A model generated the notes under the pieces. That model was not told the origin of the DNA. It saw nothing but the letters and a program-made list of their open reading frames with translations, and searched no databases. A program made the position numbers and the translations under genes. Positions 18,252 to 30,076 of a stretch of DNA of 38,438 nucleotides are shown piece after piece. The first letter of the stretch is position 1. Each line of letters starts with the position of its first letter. Source of the DNA: a virus (lineage: Duplodnaviria; Heunggongvirae; Uroviricota; Caudoviricetes); IMG/VR virus record IMGVR_UViG_2648501437_000025; one strand, given 5' to 3'.

Positions 18252-18326
<75 letters not shown>

Positions 18327-18332
18327 ATATGA

Positions 18333-18405
<73 letters not shown>

Positions 18406-18407
18406 AA

Positions 18408-18484
18408 TGGACCGTCACCGGGGACTCGAACCCCGCGCCATCAACTTCGAAGGCTGATGCTCTATCCGGATGAGCTAGTGACGG
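18408..18484 (-). tRNA. tRNA-Arg (anticodon TCG)
   Basis: Acceptor CCGTCAC/GTGACGG, D-arm GCTC...GAGC, anticodon stem TCAGC/GTTGA with loop CTTCGAA, T-arm CGGGG-TTCGAGT-CCCCG, encoded CCA. Confidence 0.8.
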
Positions 18485-19268: not shown

Positions 19269-19555
19269 AAATATCCCTCCTTTCTCCAGATTTCTTGTGT
19301 GCGAAAAACACCTTCTGCATGCATCAGGCGTAATTCTTCTTTGGTGTAATCGCTGGTTTTTACCCGCCCGTCGATTAAATCGTGGCACGAGCTACAGGCA
19401 ATTGCTGCCTGCATATCGTGTGGCTTTATCGCTGTTCCGCACGTACCCGCCAGTCGGTAATGAGCCAGTACAGACGTTTCAGGATTGTGATTGCAGTAGC
19501 CTGGGATTCTGACCTGGCACATCTGGCCCTGCGCCGCTTTACGTAAATTCACCAT
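19265..19555 (-). CDS. ybcO: YbcO-like (DUF1364) nin-region protein
   Basis: 96-aa protein with Cys pattern CQVRIPGYCNHNPETSVLAHYRL...CSSCHDLIDGR, closely resembling E. coli prophage YbcO as I remember it. Confidence 0.7.
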   Translation of the reverse strand: MVNLRKAAQGQMCQVRIPGYCNHNPETSVLAHYRLAGTCGTAIKPHDMQAAIACSSCHDLIDGRVKTSDYTKEELRLMHAEGVFRTQEIWRKEGYL

Positions 19556-20154
19556 TACGCAAACTCCAGCAGCTGCGCGGCCACATTTTCGACCTCCTCC
19601 GGAGAGGAAAACTTACGACACAGGATCCAGTTCCACAGTACGTTGAGTACTGCTTTATAAACCTGCTGAAACTCGGTTTCGTCCATATTCGCAAACGCGA
19701 TGGATTTCGCCCTGCGCCCACGGCTACCGTCCGGATAAAAATGCTCGGTGTAAAATCCGGCCTGAATGGTTACCCACTCGCGGAAAGCCTCAAACGACTT
19801 TAGCAATGCCGTATCCCGGGTTCTGCGTGTCGCAACGGTATTCAGATATTGCTCTGCGGCATCACTCAGGGCTGGAGTATGTTCCCGACCTACTGATTCG
19901 CACAGGTAATCAACGAAACCGGACACCAGTTCTCGTTCGCGAGGCGTGATCGCCCCACCGGCCGGAGTCCAGTAATCGAATCCCAATTGCAGGAGTTTGA
20001 AAAAACGCTTGTGGAATGCGTAGTTACGAACACGCTTAAAGTCAGCGTGTATCCACTCGCCTATTTTGATTTGATGCAGAAAATCGCAACTCTCCGGCGT
20101 CGCCGGGAGAAGTAATCCGGAAGAGGTTTGTTTGACCAGTTGTATATGCGCCAT
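19555..20154 (-). CDS. Nin-region protein (DUF1367-like)
   Basis: 199-aa ORF directly upstream of ybcO, one-nucleotide stop/start overlap; family from memory, low certainty. Confidence 0.4.
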   Translation of the reverse strand: MAHIQLVKQTSSGLLLPATPESCDFLHQIKIGEWIHADFKRVRNYAFHKRFFKLLQLGFDYWTPAGGAITPRERELVSGFVDYLCESVGREHTPALSDAAEQYLNTVATRRTRDTALLKSFEAFREWVTIQAGFYTEHFYPDGSRGRRAKSIAFANMDETEFQQVYKAVLNVLWNWILCRKFSSPEEVENVAAQLLEFA

Positions 20155-20225
20155 CGTAGTTCTCCGCTGGCGCAGTAGAATGGGTGTTCAGCCCGTTATG
20201 TAGTATATCAGAATTAATGCCAATA

Positions 20226-20477
20226 CTAACAGGATGCTCTGACTCGCAATTCATCCAGCAGTTTATCATTTCCCATAATGTCACTTACCCTCATCGGTAA
20301 AAAAATTGCCTTTCGACCATTACGATACATCATTGATTTTGGGGTTTCAGGGAAGTAATCCATTTCGACTATAACTGACAGGTCATCACGACGTATGACT
20401 GCGTATTTGCTACTAAATAGTTTCTTTATTTTTTCCACGATGCCTCCAGGTTTATAAGTACAAAAGGTTATATCCAC
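20226..20477 (-). CDS. Hypothetical 83-aa protein in an AT-rich segment
   Basis: ORF in a visibly AT-rich stretch between the Doc cassette terminator and the nin genes; no recognisable motif. Confidence 0.4.
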   Translation of the reverse strand: MDITFCTYKPGGIVEKIKKLFSSKYAVIRRDDLSVIVEMDYFPETPKSMMYRNGRKAIFLPMRVSDIMGNDKLLDELRVRASC

Positions 20478-20623
20478 ATAGAGACAAAAATATTAATCTG
20501 AAAAATATTTATTTCACGTCGTATATTTGATTGTTTAATGTGCAGGTACAATGACTTTTATTTTTGGCTGTGTATATAATCAAATATATGGTTATTTTTC
20601 ACCCTGCATATTCAGCACGCAAC

Positions 20624-20643
20624 AAAAAACCCGCCGAAGCGGG
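20624..20643 (-). terminator. Intrinsic terminator (cUUCGg-loop hairpin + U-run) after the Doc cassette
   Basis: Plus strand aaaaaa-cccgc-cgaa-gcggg; the same 22-nt element recurs at 21464. Confidence 0.6.
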
Positions 20644-20661
20644 TTTTCATTAGAAGCATCT

Positions 20662-21156
20662 TTAGTTTTGCTGTTCTATTTTAAGCTTGATAGTTTCATA
20701 CAAAACAATAGTTGCGCCTGTTTTACATAATTCCCGACTGTCATACGCACGAGACCAATAACACAACCAATTTTCAAGCTCTTCTCGTGTATAAATTTTA
20801 CAGGCCAGCCCCTCAGCCATCTCCACAACTTCATCGCCTGGTGCGGTTAATTCGTATCCATTTAACAATAAAAAAACCGCACCAGCCATCATTGCTGTGC
20901 GCTTGTTTGCATTGGCAAATGGATGATTCTGAATCAGACTTTCAATCAATACCGATGCCAGTACAAACATGTCGTTGGTTTGCTCATACCATCGAACCAT
21001 ACTGGGACGAGACTGAGAAGAACTTAAATTATCAACACTCAGCACACCAACAGGTTCATCTGGTGTTTGAAGCTCAATTAAAAGGCGATTAATTTCAGTA
21101 AGATCATCAACCGAAAGGTAGTGCACTCCTTCAACAATCTCAGCCATAGAGCACAA
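20662..21156 (-). CDS. doc: Doc-family toxin (Fic/Doc fold)
   Basis: Contains HPFANANKRTAMMAG, a variant of the Fic/Doc HxFx(D/N)(A/G)NKR active-site motif; preceded by a small partner ORF. Confidence 0.8.
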   Translation of the reverse strand: MCSMAEIVEGVHYLSVDDLTEINRLLIELQTPDEPVGVLSVDNLSSSQSRPSMVRWYEQTNDMFVLASVLIESLIQNHPFANANKRTAMMAGAVFLLLNGYELTAPGDEVVEMAEGLACKIYTREELENWLCYWSRAYDSRELCKTGATIVLYETIKLKIEQQN

Positions 21157-21167
21157 TACCCATCATT

Positions 21168-21344
21168 ACACTTTTGAAAGATCTTCCATTGCCTTCTCGT
21201 AACGAGAAAAACCGAAATCGAAAGCATTTTTCACCTGCTCACGATGAGTGCAATTTTCATCGATAGCCGGGCGCGGAGCTGCCACAACGCTTTTATCGCG
21301 AGGGGGAATAGTCAATCGCGGGTGTTTTTTTAGTGCGTAGCTCA
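21168..21344 (-). CDS. Putative antitoxin partner of Doc (58 aa, family not recognised)
   Basis: Small ORF (MSYALKKHPRLTIPPRDKSVVAAPRPAIDENCTHREQVKNAFDFGFSRYEKAMEDLSKV) with AAGGG RBS, ending just upstream of the Doc start; below the 60-aa track cutoff. Confidence 0.5.
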
Positions 21345-21463
21345 TTGGTGTACCCTTACTTCTCCGTCCTGTTCTTTAACAAAAATTAAGTCAATACAAA
21401 ATTAGTCAGGCTAATGTTGTTAGCATAGCCTAATACCAATCGTATTCACAACCACAGTACGTG

Positions 21464-21483
21464 AAAAAACCCGCCGAAGCGGG
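21464..21483 (-). terminator. Intrinsic terminator (cUUCGg-loop hairpin + U-run) at the 3' end of the hok locus
   Basis: Identical core to the 20624 element: aaaaaa-cccgc-cgaa-gcggg. Confidence 0.6.
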
Positions 21484-21553
21484 TTAAGTGCGGGTGCGTT
21501 GAGGATGCCTGACATATCAGAGGTGGCGGGAGATTACTCTCCCGCCCGGTCTC

Positions 21554-21709
21554 TTACTCCTCAGGTTCGTAAGCTGTGAAGACAGCGACCTCCGTCTGCC
21601 CGGTTCGGATTCGTACCTCGCAGAGGTCTTTCCTCGTTACCAGTGCCGTCACTATGACGGTTAAACAGATGACGATCAGGGCGACTAACATCGCCTTTTG
21701 CTGCTTCAT
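21554..21709 (-). CDS. hok: Hok/Gef-family type I toxin
   Basis: MKQQKAMLVALIVICLTVIVTALVTRKDLCEVRIRTGQTEVAVFTAYEPEE is near-identical to E. coli HokC/Gef as I remember it; AAGGAG RBS. Confidence 0.85.
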   Translation of the reverse strand: MKQQKAMLVALIVICLTVIVTALVTRKDLCEVRIRTGQTEVAVFTAYEPEE

Positions 21710-21766
21710 AGCCTGCATCTCCTTGACCTTTCGGTCCGTAAGAGGCAATCTATATGTGACGAGCAT
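21554..21766 (-). CDS. mok: Mok (in-frame N-terminally extended reading frame over hok)
   Basis: 70-aa ORF MLVTYRLPLTDRKVKEMQAMKQQ... matches the MokC-style extension; GAGG RBS upstream of the ATG at 21766. Confidence 0.6.
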   Translation of the reverse strand: MLVTYRLPLTDRKVKEMQAMKQQKAMLVALIVICLTVIVTALVTRKDLCEVRIRTGQTEVAVFTAYEPEE

Positions 21767-21806
21767 ATAGGGGCCTCACTTCGATTTATAGTCGGGTGGG
21801 GCTTTT
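21745..21806 (+). ncRNA. sok: Candidate Sok-like antisense RNA (approximate bounds)
   Basis: Plus-strand hairpin gcctcac...gtggggc followed by TTTT at 21773-21806, antisense to the mok translation-initiation region; 5' end not determined. Confidence 0.35.
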
Positions 21807-21949
21807 ATCTATCTGCCGTTGGTGTTCATGCCCGAGGCTGATAGCCTCAAGCACCCGCAGCAATTTTACTTAATTTCCCTTTAGTCAGAAATCATTTTTT
21901 AATCTATCTTGAAACAAGACTCAAATTCACAAATAAATTAAATATAAAA

Positions 21950-22852
21950 CTAAAACTCTATTTTTTGTGCCGGACGTGAGTTTAAAATCCAGCACTCCTG
22001 ATGTGTATGATGTATAGTTAGTAGATTGTCAAACTGAGATTTCTTAGCGTCAAATTCCATTTTATTTTTAAAGTCAACATTAAAATCTCCTGTTTCAATA
22101 GAGGCAAGAGCTTTGAGTCTATTGCATTCAGCATGCATATCAATTATATCGCTAAAACCTTCGCTTTTAATTCTTTTATTAACATAGTTCGTATAAATCC
22201 CTGCATGTTTATAAGAATCCATCACAGTGTATAATCCATCACCATCAATATCTGTAGGAGATGACATCCATTTAAAAACATGTAGAAGAAAAATATTTGC
22301 TGACCAAGGAAACACCACCCCATTAGCAAATGTTTCTGAAGTACCAGAACTAAGACTTTCATTAAGATTAGTCGCACCGATTAAGATCACATCGGTTTCA
22401 AACTCGTTCCGTTTACCAGCACCTACAAAATTAAAGGTCCCGGCATAGCATTGCCCAAGATAAACAACAGCATTTTTAAGATTTGGGGCTTCCTTCAAAG
22501 CCTTCAGTAATTGGCTTGGTGGGATAGGTTTCTGTGCATCAAGTCCATGAGGGCCACCATGACCAGTTACAAACATAACTATGTTATCATATGTATTATC
22601 ATTTAAGTCATTAAAAAAAACTGCTGATGGTTTTGACTTAAAAGGATATCTAGAAGCGAGTGCAAAAGCACCATCGTAATTCATTGAAGGGCTATCTATA
22701 TATATCGAAATATCATCTGGATTGATACCTGCCTTTTCGAGGCACATCACACCAAAGACTAAATCGACAACATGACGAAATTCCACTGCAGCTTTCGAAC
22801 AAGGCAAAAACATCACCCACCTTGTGCGTTCAGACCTAAGACTCATATACAT
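21950..22852 (-). CDS. Clan CD (legumain/caspase-like) cysteine peptidase-like protein
   Basis: Motifs NIVMFVTGHGGPHG and NAVVYLGQCYAG, 37 residues apart, follow the hydrophobic strand + His-Gly ... hydrophobic strand + Cys layout of legumain/caspase catalytic dyads; AT-rich gene; alternative start at 22813 with AAGGTGG RBS. Confidence 0.55.
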   Translation of the reverse strand: MYMSLRSERTRWVMFLPCSKAAVEFRHVVDLVFGVMCLEKAGINPDDISIYIDSPSMNYDGAFALASRYPFKSKPSAVFFNDLNDNTYDNIVMFVTGHGGPHGLDAQKPIPPSQLLKALKEAPNLKNAVVYLGQCYAGTFNFVGAGKRNEFETDVILIGATNLNESLSSGTSETFANGVVFPWSANIFLLHVFKWMSSPTDIDGDGLYTVMDSYKHAGIYTNYVNKRIKSEGFSDIIDMHAECNRLKALASIETGDFNVDFKNKMEFDAKKSQFDNLLTIHHTHQECWILNSRPAQKIEF

Positions 22853-22877
22853 CCTTGGTGGTTCGAAATGTACTTAA

Positions 22878-23174
22878 TTAAAGATTAAAATTATATCCAG
22901 AGAACACTGTATTACTGAGTGATGATGGTCTTGGTAAATCACTAAAATAAAACACTTCATCAATACTCAAGTGTTCGGTAATTTTTGTGGGCATAATCTG
23001 CCCTCGCTCATTCATGCCAAAGATATCATTACCGGTTTTTAGAAAAAATGTTATTTCCACGGTAATCCTGTAACTATTGGATTTGAAAAGCATCCATTGC
23101 CCAAGATTCACACACTCTTTTACTGCATCAGAGGTATCAGGCAACTCAGAAGATTGTAACCCCGTGAATTTCAT
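22878..23174 (-). CDS. Hypothetical 98-aa protein, first gene of the AT-rich island
   Basis: ORF with AAGGA RBS 8 nt upstream of the ATG at 23174; 25 nt upstream of the peptidase-like gene; no recognisable motif. Confidence 0.5.
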   Translation of the reverse strand: MKFTGLQSSELPDTSDAVKECVNLGQWMLFKSNSYRITVEITFFLKTGNDIFGMNERGQIMPTKITEHLSIDEVFYFSDLPRPSSLSNTVFSGYNFNL

Positions 23175-23302: not shown

Positions 23303-23386
23303 TCAACCCCAGCGGCAAATCGAATACACCACCAGCGCCACCGCCATCGCAATTCCTACCGTAGTGAATGCCTCAGGCCAGGTCAT
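23303..23386 (-). CDS. 27-aa hydrophobic micro-ORF, translationally coupled
   Basis: MTWPEAFTTVGIAMAVALVVYSICRWG; ATG overlaps the stop of the upstream gene (ATGA) and is preceded by AGGAGGTGA at 5-nt spacing. Confidence 0.4.
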   Translation of the reverse strand: MTWPEAFTTVGIAMAVALVVYSICRWG

Positions 23387-23778
23387 TGATTCACCTCCTG
23401 CTCAATATTTTTCAGATCATTTTCCGCATACAGTATTGCTGTCCTGGCTGCTCGTAACCGGGCTTTGGCATTTTTCTCTTCACGTTCAAGTTTTGCCACA
23501 GCTTCACGAAGAGCATCCCGCTTTGCATAGAGTGATTTAATCTCAGTCACGATGTTTTCACCGTTTCTCGCACGGTCAAGAACAAGCTCGAACGGATCTA
23601 AAGCCAATCCACACCGTTTGCAGGTAATCGTACGATTCACTTCTGAAATTGTTGTACGGATATGCTGACAGCATTTTTGCTCGACACTTTTTTCGTCGGT
23701 TATCACAACGTTGAGGAGTCCTTCCTCCTCTGATTTTGGCTGCACCAGGGTGATAACATTGTCGCCTTCATTTTTCAT
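23383..23778 (-). CDS. Zinc-ribbon + coiled-coil protein (paralog A)
   Basis: CCQH...CKRCG...DPF followed by a charged coiled-coil (EREEKNAKARLRAA); shares this architecture with the ORF at 25529..25927. Confidence 0.5.
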   Translation of the reverse strand: MKNEGDNVITLVQPKSEEEGLLNVVITDEKSVEQKCCQHIRTTISEVNRTITCKRCGLALDPFELVLDRARNGENIVTEIKSLYAKRDALREAVAKLEREEKNAKARLRAARTAILYAENDLKNIEQEVNQ

Positions 23779-25087: not shown

Positions 25088-25260
25088 TCATCGCCCCACT
25101 CATCACAATATGCTTCGACCGGAGTTTTTCCTGCTTCATAATCATCACGCCATGCTTCAGCATCAGCGGCACTTCCACCGCGTAACTCTGCATAATCCAT
25201 TAACAGTTCATGCCATTCTTCAAAACTGGCGTTATATTTAGTTGAACCAAAATCAGCCAT
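25084..25260 (-). CDS. Small acidic protein (58 aa)
   Basis: MADFGSTKYNASFEEWHELLMDYAELRGGSAADAEAWRDDYEAGKTPVEAYCDEWGDE from my translation; stop overlaps the next start; below the track cutoff. Confidence 0.4.
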   Translation of the reverse strand: MADFGSTKYNASFEEWHELLMDYAELRGGSAADAEAWRDDYEAGKTPVEAYCDEWGDE

Positions 25261-25435
25261 TTTGCTCTTCCTCTTCGTCTTTTATTTCGTGATATGAGTA
25301 ATTGCAGTAGTTAAAGAAAATTTCTTTTGCTTCGTCCTTTATTTCATCTGGTGTCGCATCATCATCCACTTCGAATACATCTTCAAAATCTCCACCAGCT
25401 ATTCCCGTTTCAATAATTATTTTGAACTTTCGCAT
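25253..25435 (-). CDS. Small highly acidic protein (60 aa)
   Basis: Asp/Glu-rich (FEVDDDATPDEIKDEAKE...KDEEEEQNG); a GC hairpin sits between a GGAGG element and its ATG. Confidence 0.45.
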   Translation of the reverse strand: MRKFKIIIETGIAGGDFEDVFEVDDDATPDEIKDEAKEIFFNYCNYSYHEIKDEEEEQNG

Positions 25436-25528: not shown

Positions 25529-25927
25529 TTATTCAGTTCTGGATTTTGTCGCTCTGCGTATCCGCGCTTTCGCGTTACGCTCAATCTGAATTAACTTTTC
25601 TATATTTTTCCGCCTTTCCTGTTCCTCCTGGCGCAATAGCCTTACATCATCTGCCAGTCTGGTTTCTCTTTTCGCCACTGAGAGCATCCAGTCAAACGGC
25701 TCCACAACTGCACCGCAGTTTTTACAGCGGACCTGACGCTCTTTTTCGTCAACCCGGACAGAAGCGTGATGGCAGTATGGTCTTTCCGATGGCTCATAAA
25801 GAAAATTAACCTGATTACGTGGGTCATCCTCTTTTACCGGAAATAAAACAATATTACTTAACTCATCTTCTGGATTTATTTCCACGTCACTCTCCTTTGA
25901 TGCGAATGCCAGCGACGCGTGGCACAT
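25529..25927 (-). CDS. Zinc-ribbon + coiled-coil protein (paralog B)
   Basis: YCHH...CKNCG...EPF then coiled-coil ERNAKARIRRA; start placed at ATG 25927 (track start 25966 is TTG). Confidence 0.5.
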   Translation of the reverse strand: MCHASLAFASKESDVEINPEDELSNIVLFPVKEDDPRNQVNFLYEPSERPYCHHASVRVDEKERQVRCKNCGAVVEPFDWMLSVAKRETRLADDVRLLRQEEQERRKNIEKLIQIERNAKARIRRATKSRTE

Positions 25928-26309
25928 TAACTTCCACAATGCGCACAGTTGGTTTGTACATCTCAATTGCTGTCAGCCAGTCAGCGCCAGTCATGCGCTT
26001 TTCTGCATCGCCATTAGTCCACTTAACCGGTACACCAATAGCCTTCATCGCGATTTCTATTTCCCCGGCAATGGCGCTTTTTCCACAACCAGTAAAACCA
26101 GAAACAACGACAAGAACTTCGCCTTTGGCTGGTTTTATTTCCCGTGCTTCCAGTTCTGCAATGCGCTTCTCTGCGGCTTCCAGCTCAACACGCAGCTTCC
26201 CTACCGTTAGCGCAATTTCCTCGTTCTCCTGATCGCGGCGTTTTATGTATTGCTGGTTTCTTTCCAGTTCATCCAGTAATGCCAGCACAACCTGAGGTGT
26301 GACCTTCAT
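25887..26309 (-). CDS. Hypothetical protein with P-loop-like GFTGCGKS segment
   Basis: Coiled-coil N-terminus, then VVVSGFTGCGKSAIAG; start uncertain (ATG 26309, or TTG 26426 per the track). Confidence 0.4.
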   Translation of the reverse strand: MKVTPQVVLALLDELERNQQYIKRRDQENEEIALTVGKLRVELEAAEKRIAELEAREIKPAKGEVLVVVSGFTGCGKSAIAGEIEIAMKAIGVPVKWTNGDAEKRMTGADWLTAIEMYKPTVRIVEVNVPRVAGIRIKGE

Positions 26310-28771: not shown

Positions 28772-29194
28772 TTAATGAACAATGACAGAATCGTCGGAAG
28801 ACCCGCCACCGCTGAAATATGCTTTACGGTAAACGGCCTGGACTGCATCATCATGCGCATCAATTGCCGTACTCAACGCTTCCTGCGCCGCCAGTAATGC
28901 ACGGCGTTCCAGGGTATCGAAGATGCAGAGTCGGTGACGCAGCTCGCGCGGAAGAATTGCCAGAACCGCAGGGATCAGTTTCTGAATTTTTTCCCTTTGC
29001 GCTTTCGTTTCACCTTTCAACCAACGGTGATAGATATTCTGCTGATTGTTCCAGTCCTTGCCTGGTACCAGGGGCAATTCGCCGCCCCCCTGGCGCAGAT
29101 ATTCTTCAGTAATTGCGTTAGCAACCCACGCCTGCCCTTTTTCGGCTGCTAGGGCTAACAACACTGATTCGATGTGCTCATGCCTGATTTTCAT
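28772..29194 (-). CDS. ydaT: YdaT-like protein
   Basis: 140-aa protein MKIRHEHIESVLLALAAEKGQAWVANAITEEY... closely resembles Rac YdaT from memory; start overlaps the Cro-like stop (ATGA). Confidence 0.7.
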   Translation of the reverse strand: MKIRHEHIESVLLALAAEKGQAWVANAITEEYLRQGGGELPLVPGKDWNNQQNIYHRWLKGETKAQREKIQKLIPAVLAILPRELRHRLCIFDTLERRALLAAQEALSTAIDAHDDAVQAVYRKAYFSGGGSSDDSVIVH

Positions 29195-29433
29195 GAATCA
29201 ACCGCTCCTATGCTGTTTTCGCTATGCTTACCGTCTGGGGGGAATACATCGTCAAGTCCACAATGAGCACCAAGCCGATTAAGGGTGGAAACAATTTTTC
29301 TGCACTCCTCTAGCCCAGGGGTACGAAAATTTGCTTCGTAATTTGCCAGTCGGCTTTGTATCCACCCTAGCTGAACAGCGAGTTGTCTTTGAGACAGACC
29401 AAGTTGTTTTCGATATGTTGAAATTTTGTTCAT
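29191..29433 (-). CDS. Cro-like XRE-family HTH regulator
   Basis: HTH segment LGLSQRQLAVQLGWIQSRLANYE; first gene of the leftward operon, GGAGG RBS; divergent from the repressor gene. Confidence 0.7.
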   Translation of the reverse strand: MNKISTYRKQLGLSQRQLAVQLGWIQSRLANYEANFRTPGLEECRKIVSTLNRLGAHCGLDDVFPPDGKHSENSIGAVDS

Positions 29434-29529
29434 TAAAAACCTCCGACGACAATTTTAAACACACCTTGTGTTTTACGGTCAAGCTATTTTGTGTTTTATA
29501 TAAATCACGATTCGTGATACAAGGACGAA
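29434..29529. promoter_or_regulatory. Divergent promoter/operator region of the immunity switch
   Basis: Two copies of TTGTGTTT(TA), a 15-nt perfect palindrome ATCACGA-T-TCGTGAT just upstream of the repressor RBS, and a minus-strand TTGACC/17 nt/TTTAAA promoter-like element. Confidence 0.55.
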
Positions 29530-29949
29530 ATGGAAAAAGAAAACGAAAAAATTGCCGCTAGTAGGCTCAATGACAAAATTGCAATGCGTCTTAAAGAGCG
29601 CAGGCAGAAGCTTGGTTTATCTCAAGGAAAACTTGCTGAAATCTGCGGATGGACGCAATCGCGTATAGGTAACTATGAGGCGGGCAGCAGAAATGTTGGA
29701 GTGCATGATGCTGTCGTCCTGGGAAAGGCGCTGGGCATATCTCCTCCTGAGCTCCTCTTTGGGGAAAAAGACTCTTCTGAATTGTGGTTAAATGAATCCC
29801 AACGAAAACTTCTTGAGTTGTTTAACCAGCTACCGGGCTCAGAACAACAACGAATGATTGAGCTATTTGAAGTCCGGCTAAAAGAAATCGACGAGTATGT
29901 AGAAAAATATTTGAGGGGCAGGCTTAAAGATACCCCCCCACCGGAGTAA
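29530..29949 (+). CDS. Prophage repressor (CI-like XRE HTH, no peptidase domain)
   Basis: HTH segment LGLSQGKLAEICGWTQSRIGNYEAG; divergent from the Cro-like gene; followed by its own terminator. Confidence 0.7.
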   Translation: MEKENEKIAASRLNDKIAMRLKERRQKLGLSQGKLAEICGWTQSRIGNYEAGSRNVGVHDAVVLGKALGISPPELLFGEKDSSELWLNESQRKLLELFNQLPGSEQQRMIELFEVRLKEIDEYVEKYLRGRLKDTPPPE

Positions 29950-29994: not shown

Positions 29995-30041
29995 GGCTTT
30001 TTTTGTACCATCATCATATGACACGCCACCATAAAAACACA

Positions 30042-30076
30042 TTTTGTGTTGACATACAAAAACCCTTTGTGTTTAA
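30042..30076 (+). promoter_or_regulatory. PL-like early-left promoter with operator repeats
   Basis: TTGACA, 17-nt spacer, TTTAAT, overlapped by two TTTGTGTT repeats also present in the 29434-29529 region. Confidence 0.5.

Follow-up and report, generated by a model that had tools for sequence, protein, structure and literature searches.

In the Gifsy prophages of Salmonella, the SOS operon runs from a terminator through a LexA box with its promoter and dinI to a short antirepressor gene whose start codon is not ATG (gftA, gfoA or gfhA) and then to a homologue of irsA (PMC3121763). GfoA, Gifsy-1's antirepressor, is controlled by LexA and inactivates the phage repressor, and GfoA and GfhA act on both GfoR and GfhR (PMC3121763). 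Repressors of this class are non-cleavable and are controlled by antirepressors (Lemire et al., PMC3121763; Ragunathan et al., bioRxiv 10.1101/2023.04.14.536235), and expression of rem, from the prophage Qin of E. coli K-12, raises the DicA-repressed promoter dicBp 165-fold (Ragunathan et al. 2023, bioRxiv 10.1101/2023.04.14.536235). The same logic, in which a protein made outside the immunity region attaches to the repressor and takes it off the DNA, is followed by Tum of phage 186, AntC of N15 and Ant of P22 (PMC3121763). Here we describe a small, previously unannotated gene (positions 20226-20438, minus strand) in a stretch of DNA of 38,438 nucleotides (nt) from the virus record IMGVR_UViG_2648501437_000025, which we call the window and which is a Rac-like lambdoid prophage. 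From its homology, its synteny and the type of repressor that accompanies it, we consider it likely that this gene encodes the prophage's own GfoA-related antirepressor, acting on a DicA-type repressor encoded about 9 kilobases (kb) away, and that it most likely belongs to the GfoA/Rem superfamily; antirepressors of this kind are already known.

With GfoA the window protein shares detectable homology, a length of about 70-80 amino acids (aa) and a non-ATG start; both genes are located outside the immunity region, behind a terminator and directly ahead of an irsA/DUF1367 homologue, in prophages with a short non-cleavable repressor of the GfoR/DicA type, and in both cases one type of antirepressor occurs with heteroimmune repressors. 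On the other hand, identity to GfoA is only about 21-33%, the best match of the window protein is PHROG 1813 and not PHROG 340, the C-terminal GYRVTPPSD tail of GfoA is missing, and neither dinI nor a LexA box stands upstream, so that no SOS control is evident. Rem occupies a comparable slot on the K-12 map, following hok and toxin-antitoxin (TA) genes and the same hairpin and preceding late-regulator genes; it is likewise small (83 aa), has a DicA-type target and lacks dinI and a LexA box (best score 3.0 bits). It differs in showing no pairwise similarity to the window protein, the two being linked through intermediates such as the protein cluster P0164 and through the double PHROG match of GfoA, and in its downstream neighbour, which is ydfU (DUF968) where the window has a DUF1367 gene. 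GftA of Gifsy-2 has the same slot in its operon (dinI, gftA, STM1020), a GTG start and the same proposed action, but has no significant sequence similarity and falls in PHROG 4847. FsoA, located in the left operon of Fels-1, is a precedent for members under control other than that of LexA (PMC3121763), whereas Tum, AntC and Ant are larger, unrelated proteins, of which Tum and AntC are LexA-controlled.

Gene model and coding evidence

An earlier note on this DNA placed a gene of 83 aa at 20226-20477. An open frame of 83 codons does run on the minus strand between a GTG at 20477 and a stop at 20226, and it is coding, but the comparison with relatives indicates that this reading is too long and that the conserved gene has 70 codons, from a GTG at 20438-20436 to the stop at 20228-20226. 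When five diverged loci of E. coli are aligned, the block GGAGGCAT(C/A)GTG is invariant, and the sequence 5' of it diverges, with a 16-nt indel in the locus C41. This C41 variant, which is 72% identical, also has an in-frame TAG five codons ahead of the conserved GTG, and the GTG itself lies 4 nt downstream of a Shine-Dalgarno sequence, GGAGG (20443-20447). PGAP and most database entries give the 70-aa form (213 nt), and divergent homologues start at the same point. We adopted the 70-aa gene model (20226-20438) because of the invariant Shine-Dalgarno sequence and GTG, the upstream stop in C41, the PGAP form and the starts of the homologues; the 13 extra codons (20439-20477, minus strand) are not conserved in C41 or in Salmonella ZC-S1 relatives and are most likely a noncoding 5' leader that holds the Shine-Dalgarno sequence.

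Compared with the C41 allele, the synonymous sites of the small gene are saturated (33.5 differences at 43.5 sites, pS 0.77), with 31.5 differences at 166.5 non-synonymous sites (pN 0.19), which gives a pN/pS of about 0.25 and points to a real coding gene maintained by purifying selection. The open reading frame (ORF), together with its AT-rich leader, is present as an intact module in 173 of 5426 complete E. coli genomes, and close copies of the protein, which ends in ...RVRASC, were found in E. coli and Shigella only. Within the gene a run of seven T (20299-20305, minus strand) is the site at which one additional T produces truncated variants ending in ...AIFFTDEGK (clusters P0011, P0014 and P0017). 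Judged from the sizes of the protein clusters such frameshift alleles are rare, with three small clusters against one intact cluster of 277 members, and intact copies, not interrupted ones, dominate among close relatives.

Relation to GfoA and the conserved slot

The earlier statement that the protein has no recognisable motif agrees with our searches of Pfam, NCBIfam and PADLOC, none of which gave a match; the protein P0111 carries the precomputed label PF27490. An orphan it is not, as it falls in PHROG 1813 (E=1e-34, and E=1.7e-32 in the family comparison), a family listed in PHROGs as of unknown function, and a profile of the family finds 390 clusters (90% identity) across Enterobacterales. 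Furthermore, a tblastn search against phage genomes found proteins 28-54% identical in phages of Salmonella, Citrobacter, Klebsiella and Aeromonas.

For the comparison with GfoA, the identity of that protein was checked against the published primers (PMC3121763). A search of IMG/VR with the published gfoA 5' primer recovered the GfoA-type ORF in 37 loci, as a frame of 82 aa with a TTG start (MSNSALQK ... RRLGYRVTPPSD...) between dinI and an irsA homologue. The exact 3' primer of strain 14028 is absent from the retrieved loci, whose ORF departs from it by one synonymous substitution and, close to the stop, by a 1-nt indel, and the 82 aa of the retrieved ORF compare with about 75 aa inferred from the 14028 primer; we refer to it as GfoA-like. 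In BLASTP the window protein matches it over the N-terminal half (E=7e-5). A protein of the Citrobacter phage Chris1 bridges the two, with E values of 3e-14 for the window protein and 4e-17 for the GfoA-like one, and in a ten-sequence alignment the GfoA-like protein keeps all six invariant residues (R16, D19, P30, Y38, R39 and P48).

The window protein and 86 relatives, GfoA not among them, were combined into a profile, which was then compared with 1.84 billion representative proteins. Just 46 clusters were found at E<=1e-3, and among them were the GfoA-like clusters P0154 (E=1.5e-15; 48% identical to the GfoA-like protein), P0169, and P0159 and P0160 (both at about 2e-11, the upper value being 2.4e-11), as well as P0164 (E=4.9e-9), which in its C-terminal half shares 45% identity with K-12 Rem. 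In the PHROG library the GfoA-like protein matches phrog_340 (E=7.6e-21) and also phrog_1813 (E=3.5e-11), Rem matches phrog_340 (E=4.4e-21) and the Chris1 protein matches both. Because of these profile, bridge and PHROG results, we place the window protein in a sister family to the one that holds two proven antirepressors, with GfoA matching both families. Two more direct identifications were considered. The possibility that the window gene is K-12 rem itself, given its equal length and comparable slot, was rejected, since BLASTP finds no similarity and the flanks alone align; direct homology to GftA (phrog_4847) is unsupported, for want of significant similarity.

The position of the gene on the map is conserved too. 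The gene downstream (19555-20154, minus strand; Pfam DUF1367, E=4e-98) is a homologue of the irsA-like STM1020 of the Gifsy prophages, 54% identical to that of Gifsy-2. It begins 71 nt after the stop of the small gene, with no hairpin or terminator between them, and it is the constant partner in window-type and GfoA-type loci, so that the description of the small gene as a standalone ORF does not hold. In SPN3UB, Chris1, pAEv1818 and ST846-OXA48phi9.1 the homologue stands directly after dinI, and it stands directly ahead of DUF1367 where that gene is present, as in SPN3UB, pAEv1818 and the dinI-less Salmonella ZC-S1. The Gifsy-2 antirepressor gene, STM1020.1n, has a GTG start (MAEGVLS...), fits the published primers and is followed by STM1020. 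Altogether, the family keeps a fixed slot in lambdoid prophages of the Gifsy, Rac and Qin kind, next to DUF1367 or ydfU in more than 70 loci of many genera, and every locus examined has this slot occupied by a family member or by an analogue (rem, gftA). What varies among relatives is the upstream neighbour, which may be hokD, a Doc TA system, or an ATPase with a methyltransferase; this is not the presence/absence polymorphism of a moron. Because of the fixed slot, the antirepressor relatives and the varying upstream neighbours, we read the gene as a regulatory gene of the phage and not as cargo.

On its other side the gene is preceded by an AT-rich leader and a terminator. The low GC content that the earlier note had seen at 20480-20620 is borne out, with 28% against a mean of 46% for the whole window; the value is 38.5% in the 83-codon ORF and 30% over the 187-nt leader (20439-20625), and just 0.6% of equal-sized windows are this low. 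The Rho-independent terminator (20618-20650, minus strand), a perfect 9-bp inverted repeat (20626-20634/20639-20647) followed by a T-run, ends the transcript of the Doc gene, or that of hok in relatives. As described earlier, the small gene thus lies between the Doc cassette terminator and the nin genes, as a separate AT-rich unit that the hairpin insulates. The hairpin is kept in every relative; in loci of the Gifsy type and of Kluyvera the same one stands ahead of LexA box and promoter, and in K-12 ahead of rem. Up to this terminator, the AT-rich leader travels with the small gene as one conserved module.

Two observations concern the family more widely. Protein P0013 is a chimera in which the N-terminus of another ORF of the window (60 aa, 25253-25435) is continued by the last 45 aa of the family; this implies that a deletion fused both genes in some prophage of E. 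coli. Moreover, two fragments of 45 aa, P0015 and P0016, bear the name 'bacteriocin' in NCBI, apparently a mis-annotation.

Repressor, regulation and competing explanations

The putative target of the antirepressor is the prophage repressor, a protein of 139 aa of the DicA/GfoR type (29530-29949, plus strand), which has an HTH_3 domain and no S24 peptidase domain and is encoded 9.1 kb from the small gene. Its identity to DicA is 30% over the full length (E=2e-15), and it has the C-terminal motif LLxLFNQLPxxEQ in common with the Gifsy repressors (46% over 35 aa). Divergent from it lies a Cro-like helix-turn-helix gene (29191-29433, minus strand; Pfam HTH_3), accompanied by a YdaT/CII-like gene (28772-29194, minus strand; Pfam YdaT_toxin); YdaS and YdaT are Cro and CII analogues (PMC8630535). 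Between the repressor and cro-like genes there is an operator-like palindrome, AAACACA-N3-TGTGTTT (29457-29473), with further copies at 30035-30051 and 30058-30074 (0, 1 and 2 mismatches). These copies, which flank the repressor gene, are likely to be the OR/OL operators. A second, different palindrome, ATCACGATTCGTGAT, adjoins the start of the repressor (29504-29518).

We hypothesise that the 70-aa protein binds this short, non-cleavable repressor, probably at its conserved C-terminal domain, and would thereby pull it off the AAACACA-N3-TGTGTTT operators; early promoters would be derepressed and the prophage would shift to lytic gene expression. The alleles found with different repressors are compatible with such a contact. 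The prophages of O157:H7 17B6-2 and C41 have the repressor of the window (98%), with antirepressor alleles 97% and 66% identical to that of the window, respectively. In XH989, on the other hand, the antirepressor is 94% identical and the repressor only 21% identical, yet with the C-terminal motif kept. A near-identical antirepressor next to two heteroimmune repressors that share this motif parallels the action of GfoA on GfoR and GfhR, and the loose pairing suggests that what is recognised is the conserved C-terminal domain of the repressor.

Several results weigh against this assignment. No match of the window protein to PHROG 340 is obtained at E<=0.1, and it is to this sister family that GfoA and Rem score best; profile comparisons with the single sequences of Rem (hhalign E=0.04) and GftA (E=0.28) are not significant; and, as far as we looked, the literature holds no experiment on any PHROG 1813 member. 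An AlphaFold2 model built on an 87-sequence alignment (mean predicted confidence, pLDDT, 83) has strands at 12-17, 20-26, 35-40 and 43-48 and a C-terminal helix at 60-69, and Foldseek found no significant match to it in PDB and BFVD (best E=0.47), so that the structure gives no independent support; a weak resemblance to VapB/AbrB was discarded (VapB antitoxins at E>1 and TM-score below 0.4). The pairing also appears loose in the other direction, as the C41 repressor is the same as that of O157 while its antirepressor is just 66% identical. Regarding regulation, no site in the whole 38-kb window scores above 11.4 bits for LexA, the weakest reference box scoring 12.4; within 900 nt upstream of the gene the best score is about 7 bits (6.6 against the window's own base composition, 7.4 against a uniform background), and dinI is missing, which indicates that the SOS control characteristic of the Gifsy system is lacking. 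Finally, a scan with consensus promoters accepted no minus-strand sigma-70 site, the candidate described below (20489-20517) being under the threshold.

The missing SOS link sets the window apart from most of its relatives. We scanned 78 loci, using tblastn and a position-specific scoring matrix for LexA built from 27 reference E. coli boxes, a choice that limits the test; these boxes score 12.4-25.9 bits. The matrix does work, as judged from positives of 22-28.6 bits in relatives: all Chris1/SPN3UB-type and GfoA-type loci with enough upstream sequence have a LexA box in this range. In about 60 relatives from other Enterobacterales the box lies 50-390 nt upstream, nearly always with dinI between, and in 27 of the 27 LexA-linked loci with at least 4.3 kb of upstream sequence a repressor of the DicA/GtgR/GfoR type is encoded 4.3-9.7 kb upstream on the opposite strand. 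Two loci, L071 from Enterobacteriaceae bacterium 89 and L073 from Kluyvera genomosp. 1, have a LexA box of 22-25 bits directly ahead of the gene and no dinI, a layout intermediate between the Gifsy type and the window type. The window and five relatives from E. coli lack dinI, as do the sister in Salmonella ZC-S1 (54% identical) and rem, and the best LexA score in these loci is 3-7.5 bits. The LexA-like sequence of the window, GGCTGTGTATATAATCAAAT (20566-20585), is degenerate (6.6 bits) and was judged non-functional; control through its core CTGTGTATATAATCAA (20568-20583) was rejected on this score and because its CAG is CAA in most relatives. Expression of the small gene is thus not wired to the SOS response, as judged by the lack of both dinI and a LexA box.

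Control by the prophage's own repressor, in the manner of FsoA, was rejected as well. The operators lie just at 29457, 30035 and 30058, a scan of 20400-20700 found no AAACACA-N3-TGTGTTT copy near the small gene, and direct control by the phage repressor is therefore not evident. What the leader does hold is a candidate sigma-70 promoter (20489-20517, minus strand), with a -35 element GTGAAA (20512-20517), a spacer of 17 nt and a -10 element AATATT (20489-20494). The blocks CGTGAAA and ATATT, at equal spacing, are invariant in the five E. coli loci, including the 72% variant; leader blocks are partly conserved in the Salmonella sister, and the candidate aligns with the promoter and LexA box site of the Kluyvera locus L073. 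The small gene would then probably be co-transcribed with the irsA-like DUF1367 gene from a weak promoter in the leader, behind the insulating terminator. It is also possible, if doubtful, that a GfoA-related sub-clade, comprising the Rac-like window type of E. coli and its Salmonella sister, was rewired from LexA to another input through the AT-rich leader.

Unlikely, though the best placed of the competing explanations, is that the gene encodes an antirepressor but not a trigger of induction. It would then be read as part of the delayed-early rightward transcript once repression is lost, by antitermination through the hairpin (20626-20647), and would serve to lock in the lytic decision by feed-forward, or to induce other DicA-type prophages of the cell in trans (crosstalk). 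Such a role would fit the place of the gene within the rightward early operon, with the replication genes on one side of it and the Q-like gene on the other, all on one strand, as well as the lack of a LexA box and of a strong promoter of its own and the finding of one allele with heteroimmune repressors; FsoA of Fels-1, under phage-repressor control, acts on the Gifsy-2 repressor in trans (PMC3121763). However, a 190-nt AT-rich leader is conserved with the gene and its invariant blocks fit a -35/-10 pair, every relative has the insulating terminator, as in the LexA loci where it isolates an independent promoter, and no repressor operator adjoins the gene.

More improbable still is that the gene is an evolutionary relic, an antirepressor gene deprived of its former dinI/LexA promoter and no longer expressed or needed. 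That dinI and the LexA box of about 60 relatives have been lost here is in keeping with this explanation, as is the unrelated sequence that the window holds at the position aligned to the L073 LexA box; frameshift alleles occasionally occur at the T7 run, and many such prophages are defective. On the other hand, a relic should not be under purifying selection such as that seen against the C41 allele (pN 0.19 with saturated pS), nor keep an invariant Shine-Dalgarno sequence and start, leader blocks conserved even in the Salmonella sister and intact copies in the large majority; moreover Rem, which also lacks SOS control, is still a potent antirepressor.

There is little to recommend the earlier note's own proposal of an additional moron, that is, unrelated cargo such as a small toxin, antitoxin, anti-defence or exclusion gene beside the hok and Doc cassettes, since its favourable points (the AT-rich composition, the upstream terminator, the TA neighbours, the lack of a Pfam, NCBIfam or PADLOC match and the 'bacteriocin' name) are met by a conserved family with significant GfoA homology, by a fixed slot beside DUF1367/ydfU in many genera, by variation that lies in the upstream neighbours and not in the gene, by the lack of an attached TA-type partner gene and by the restriction of that name to truncated fragments, with no model found behind it. 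Of the traits of a moron, the upstream terminator, the 30% GC leader and the 38.5% GC ORF are present, and a downstream terminator and a consensus promoter on its strand are not. Likewise, a test of the small gene as a TA component found no family match in these three databases and no partner: the terminator separates it from Doc, and the gene downstream is DUF1367. We thus favour the assignment of the gene as the prophage's GfoA-related antirepressor.

Neighbouring features and significance

On one side, relatives of the window carry intR, xisR, ralR, recT, recE and kilR; replication, nin, Q-like, tRNA, lysis and trkG genes lie on the opposite side. Upstream of the terminator in the window lies the Doc cassette (20662-21345, minus strand), made up of a Doc-family toxin gene (20662-21156; TIGR01550, E=4e-35) and an upstream partner of 59 aa, which belongs to phrog_2208, has no Pfam or NCBIfam match and is presumably the antitoxin of Doc. 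A complete hok/sok type I TA locus (21554-21766 and 21707-21856, minus strand; Pfam HOK_GEF, E=1.7e-23; Rfam sok, 99.9 bits) is located upstream of this cassette, and in most relatives hokD stands directly ahead of the terminator and the small gene. Over 19900-21900, sok (21707-21856) is the only Rfam match above threshold, with none in or next to the small gene. A sub-threshold match to isrK, a Salmonella small RNA, lies just 3' of hok (21464-21545, minus strand; 25.7 bits, gathering threshold 50) and is probably just terminator similarity.

The consensus promoter scan accepted two plus-strand sites and none on the minus strand. A promoter-like ATGACT-18-TATAAT (20551-20580, plus strand) lies opposite the small gene and is aimed at the hairpin (20626-20647), which looks bidirectional; it could direct an RNA of about 65 nt that runs away from the small gene. 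C41 has TGGACA-18-TCTAAT at the same position, and Rfam holds nothing significant there.

Further along, a very AT-rich pair of ORFs (21950-23174, minus strand), of 300 aa (37% GC, with a weak match to Peptidase_C13, E=3e-6) and then 98 aa, looks like true cargo, possibly related to defence; PADLOC gave no match. The ORFs at 23383-23778 and 25529-25966 (both minus strand; 131 and 145 aa) appear by eye to be paralogues, each with a CxxC...CxxC motif followed by a coiled-coil that ends in ...ERNAKAR(L/I)R.A. Genes for three tRNAs, Gly(tcc), Thr(tgt) and Arg(tcg), form a cluster between the Q-like and lysis genes (18252-18484, minus strand), and the tRNA sets at this spot differ among relatives.

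The small gene is present in about 3% of complete E. coli genomes, among them O157:H7, O145 and avian pathogenic E. coli (APEC) strains, where it stands as a 'hypothetical protein'. The gene model is corrected from 83 to 70 aa, and PHROG 1813 gains a testable function. If the assignment is right, the gene would be a missing handle on the induction of prophages with non-cleavable DicA/RacR-type repressors, such as those of Qin and Rac, and expressing 70 aa would offer a simple genetic tool to induce the prophage. It would also be a naturally occurring example of an induction module cut off from the SOS response and, should the rewiring of the sub-clade be true, these prophages would have an SOS-independent route of induction. 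Moreover, because a near-identical protein occurs with heteroimmune DicA-type repressors, one gene could wake several prophages, including cryptic ones with toxic dicB or kilR.

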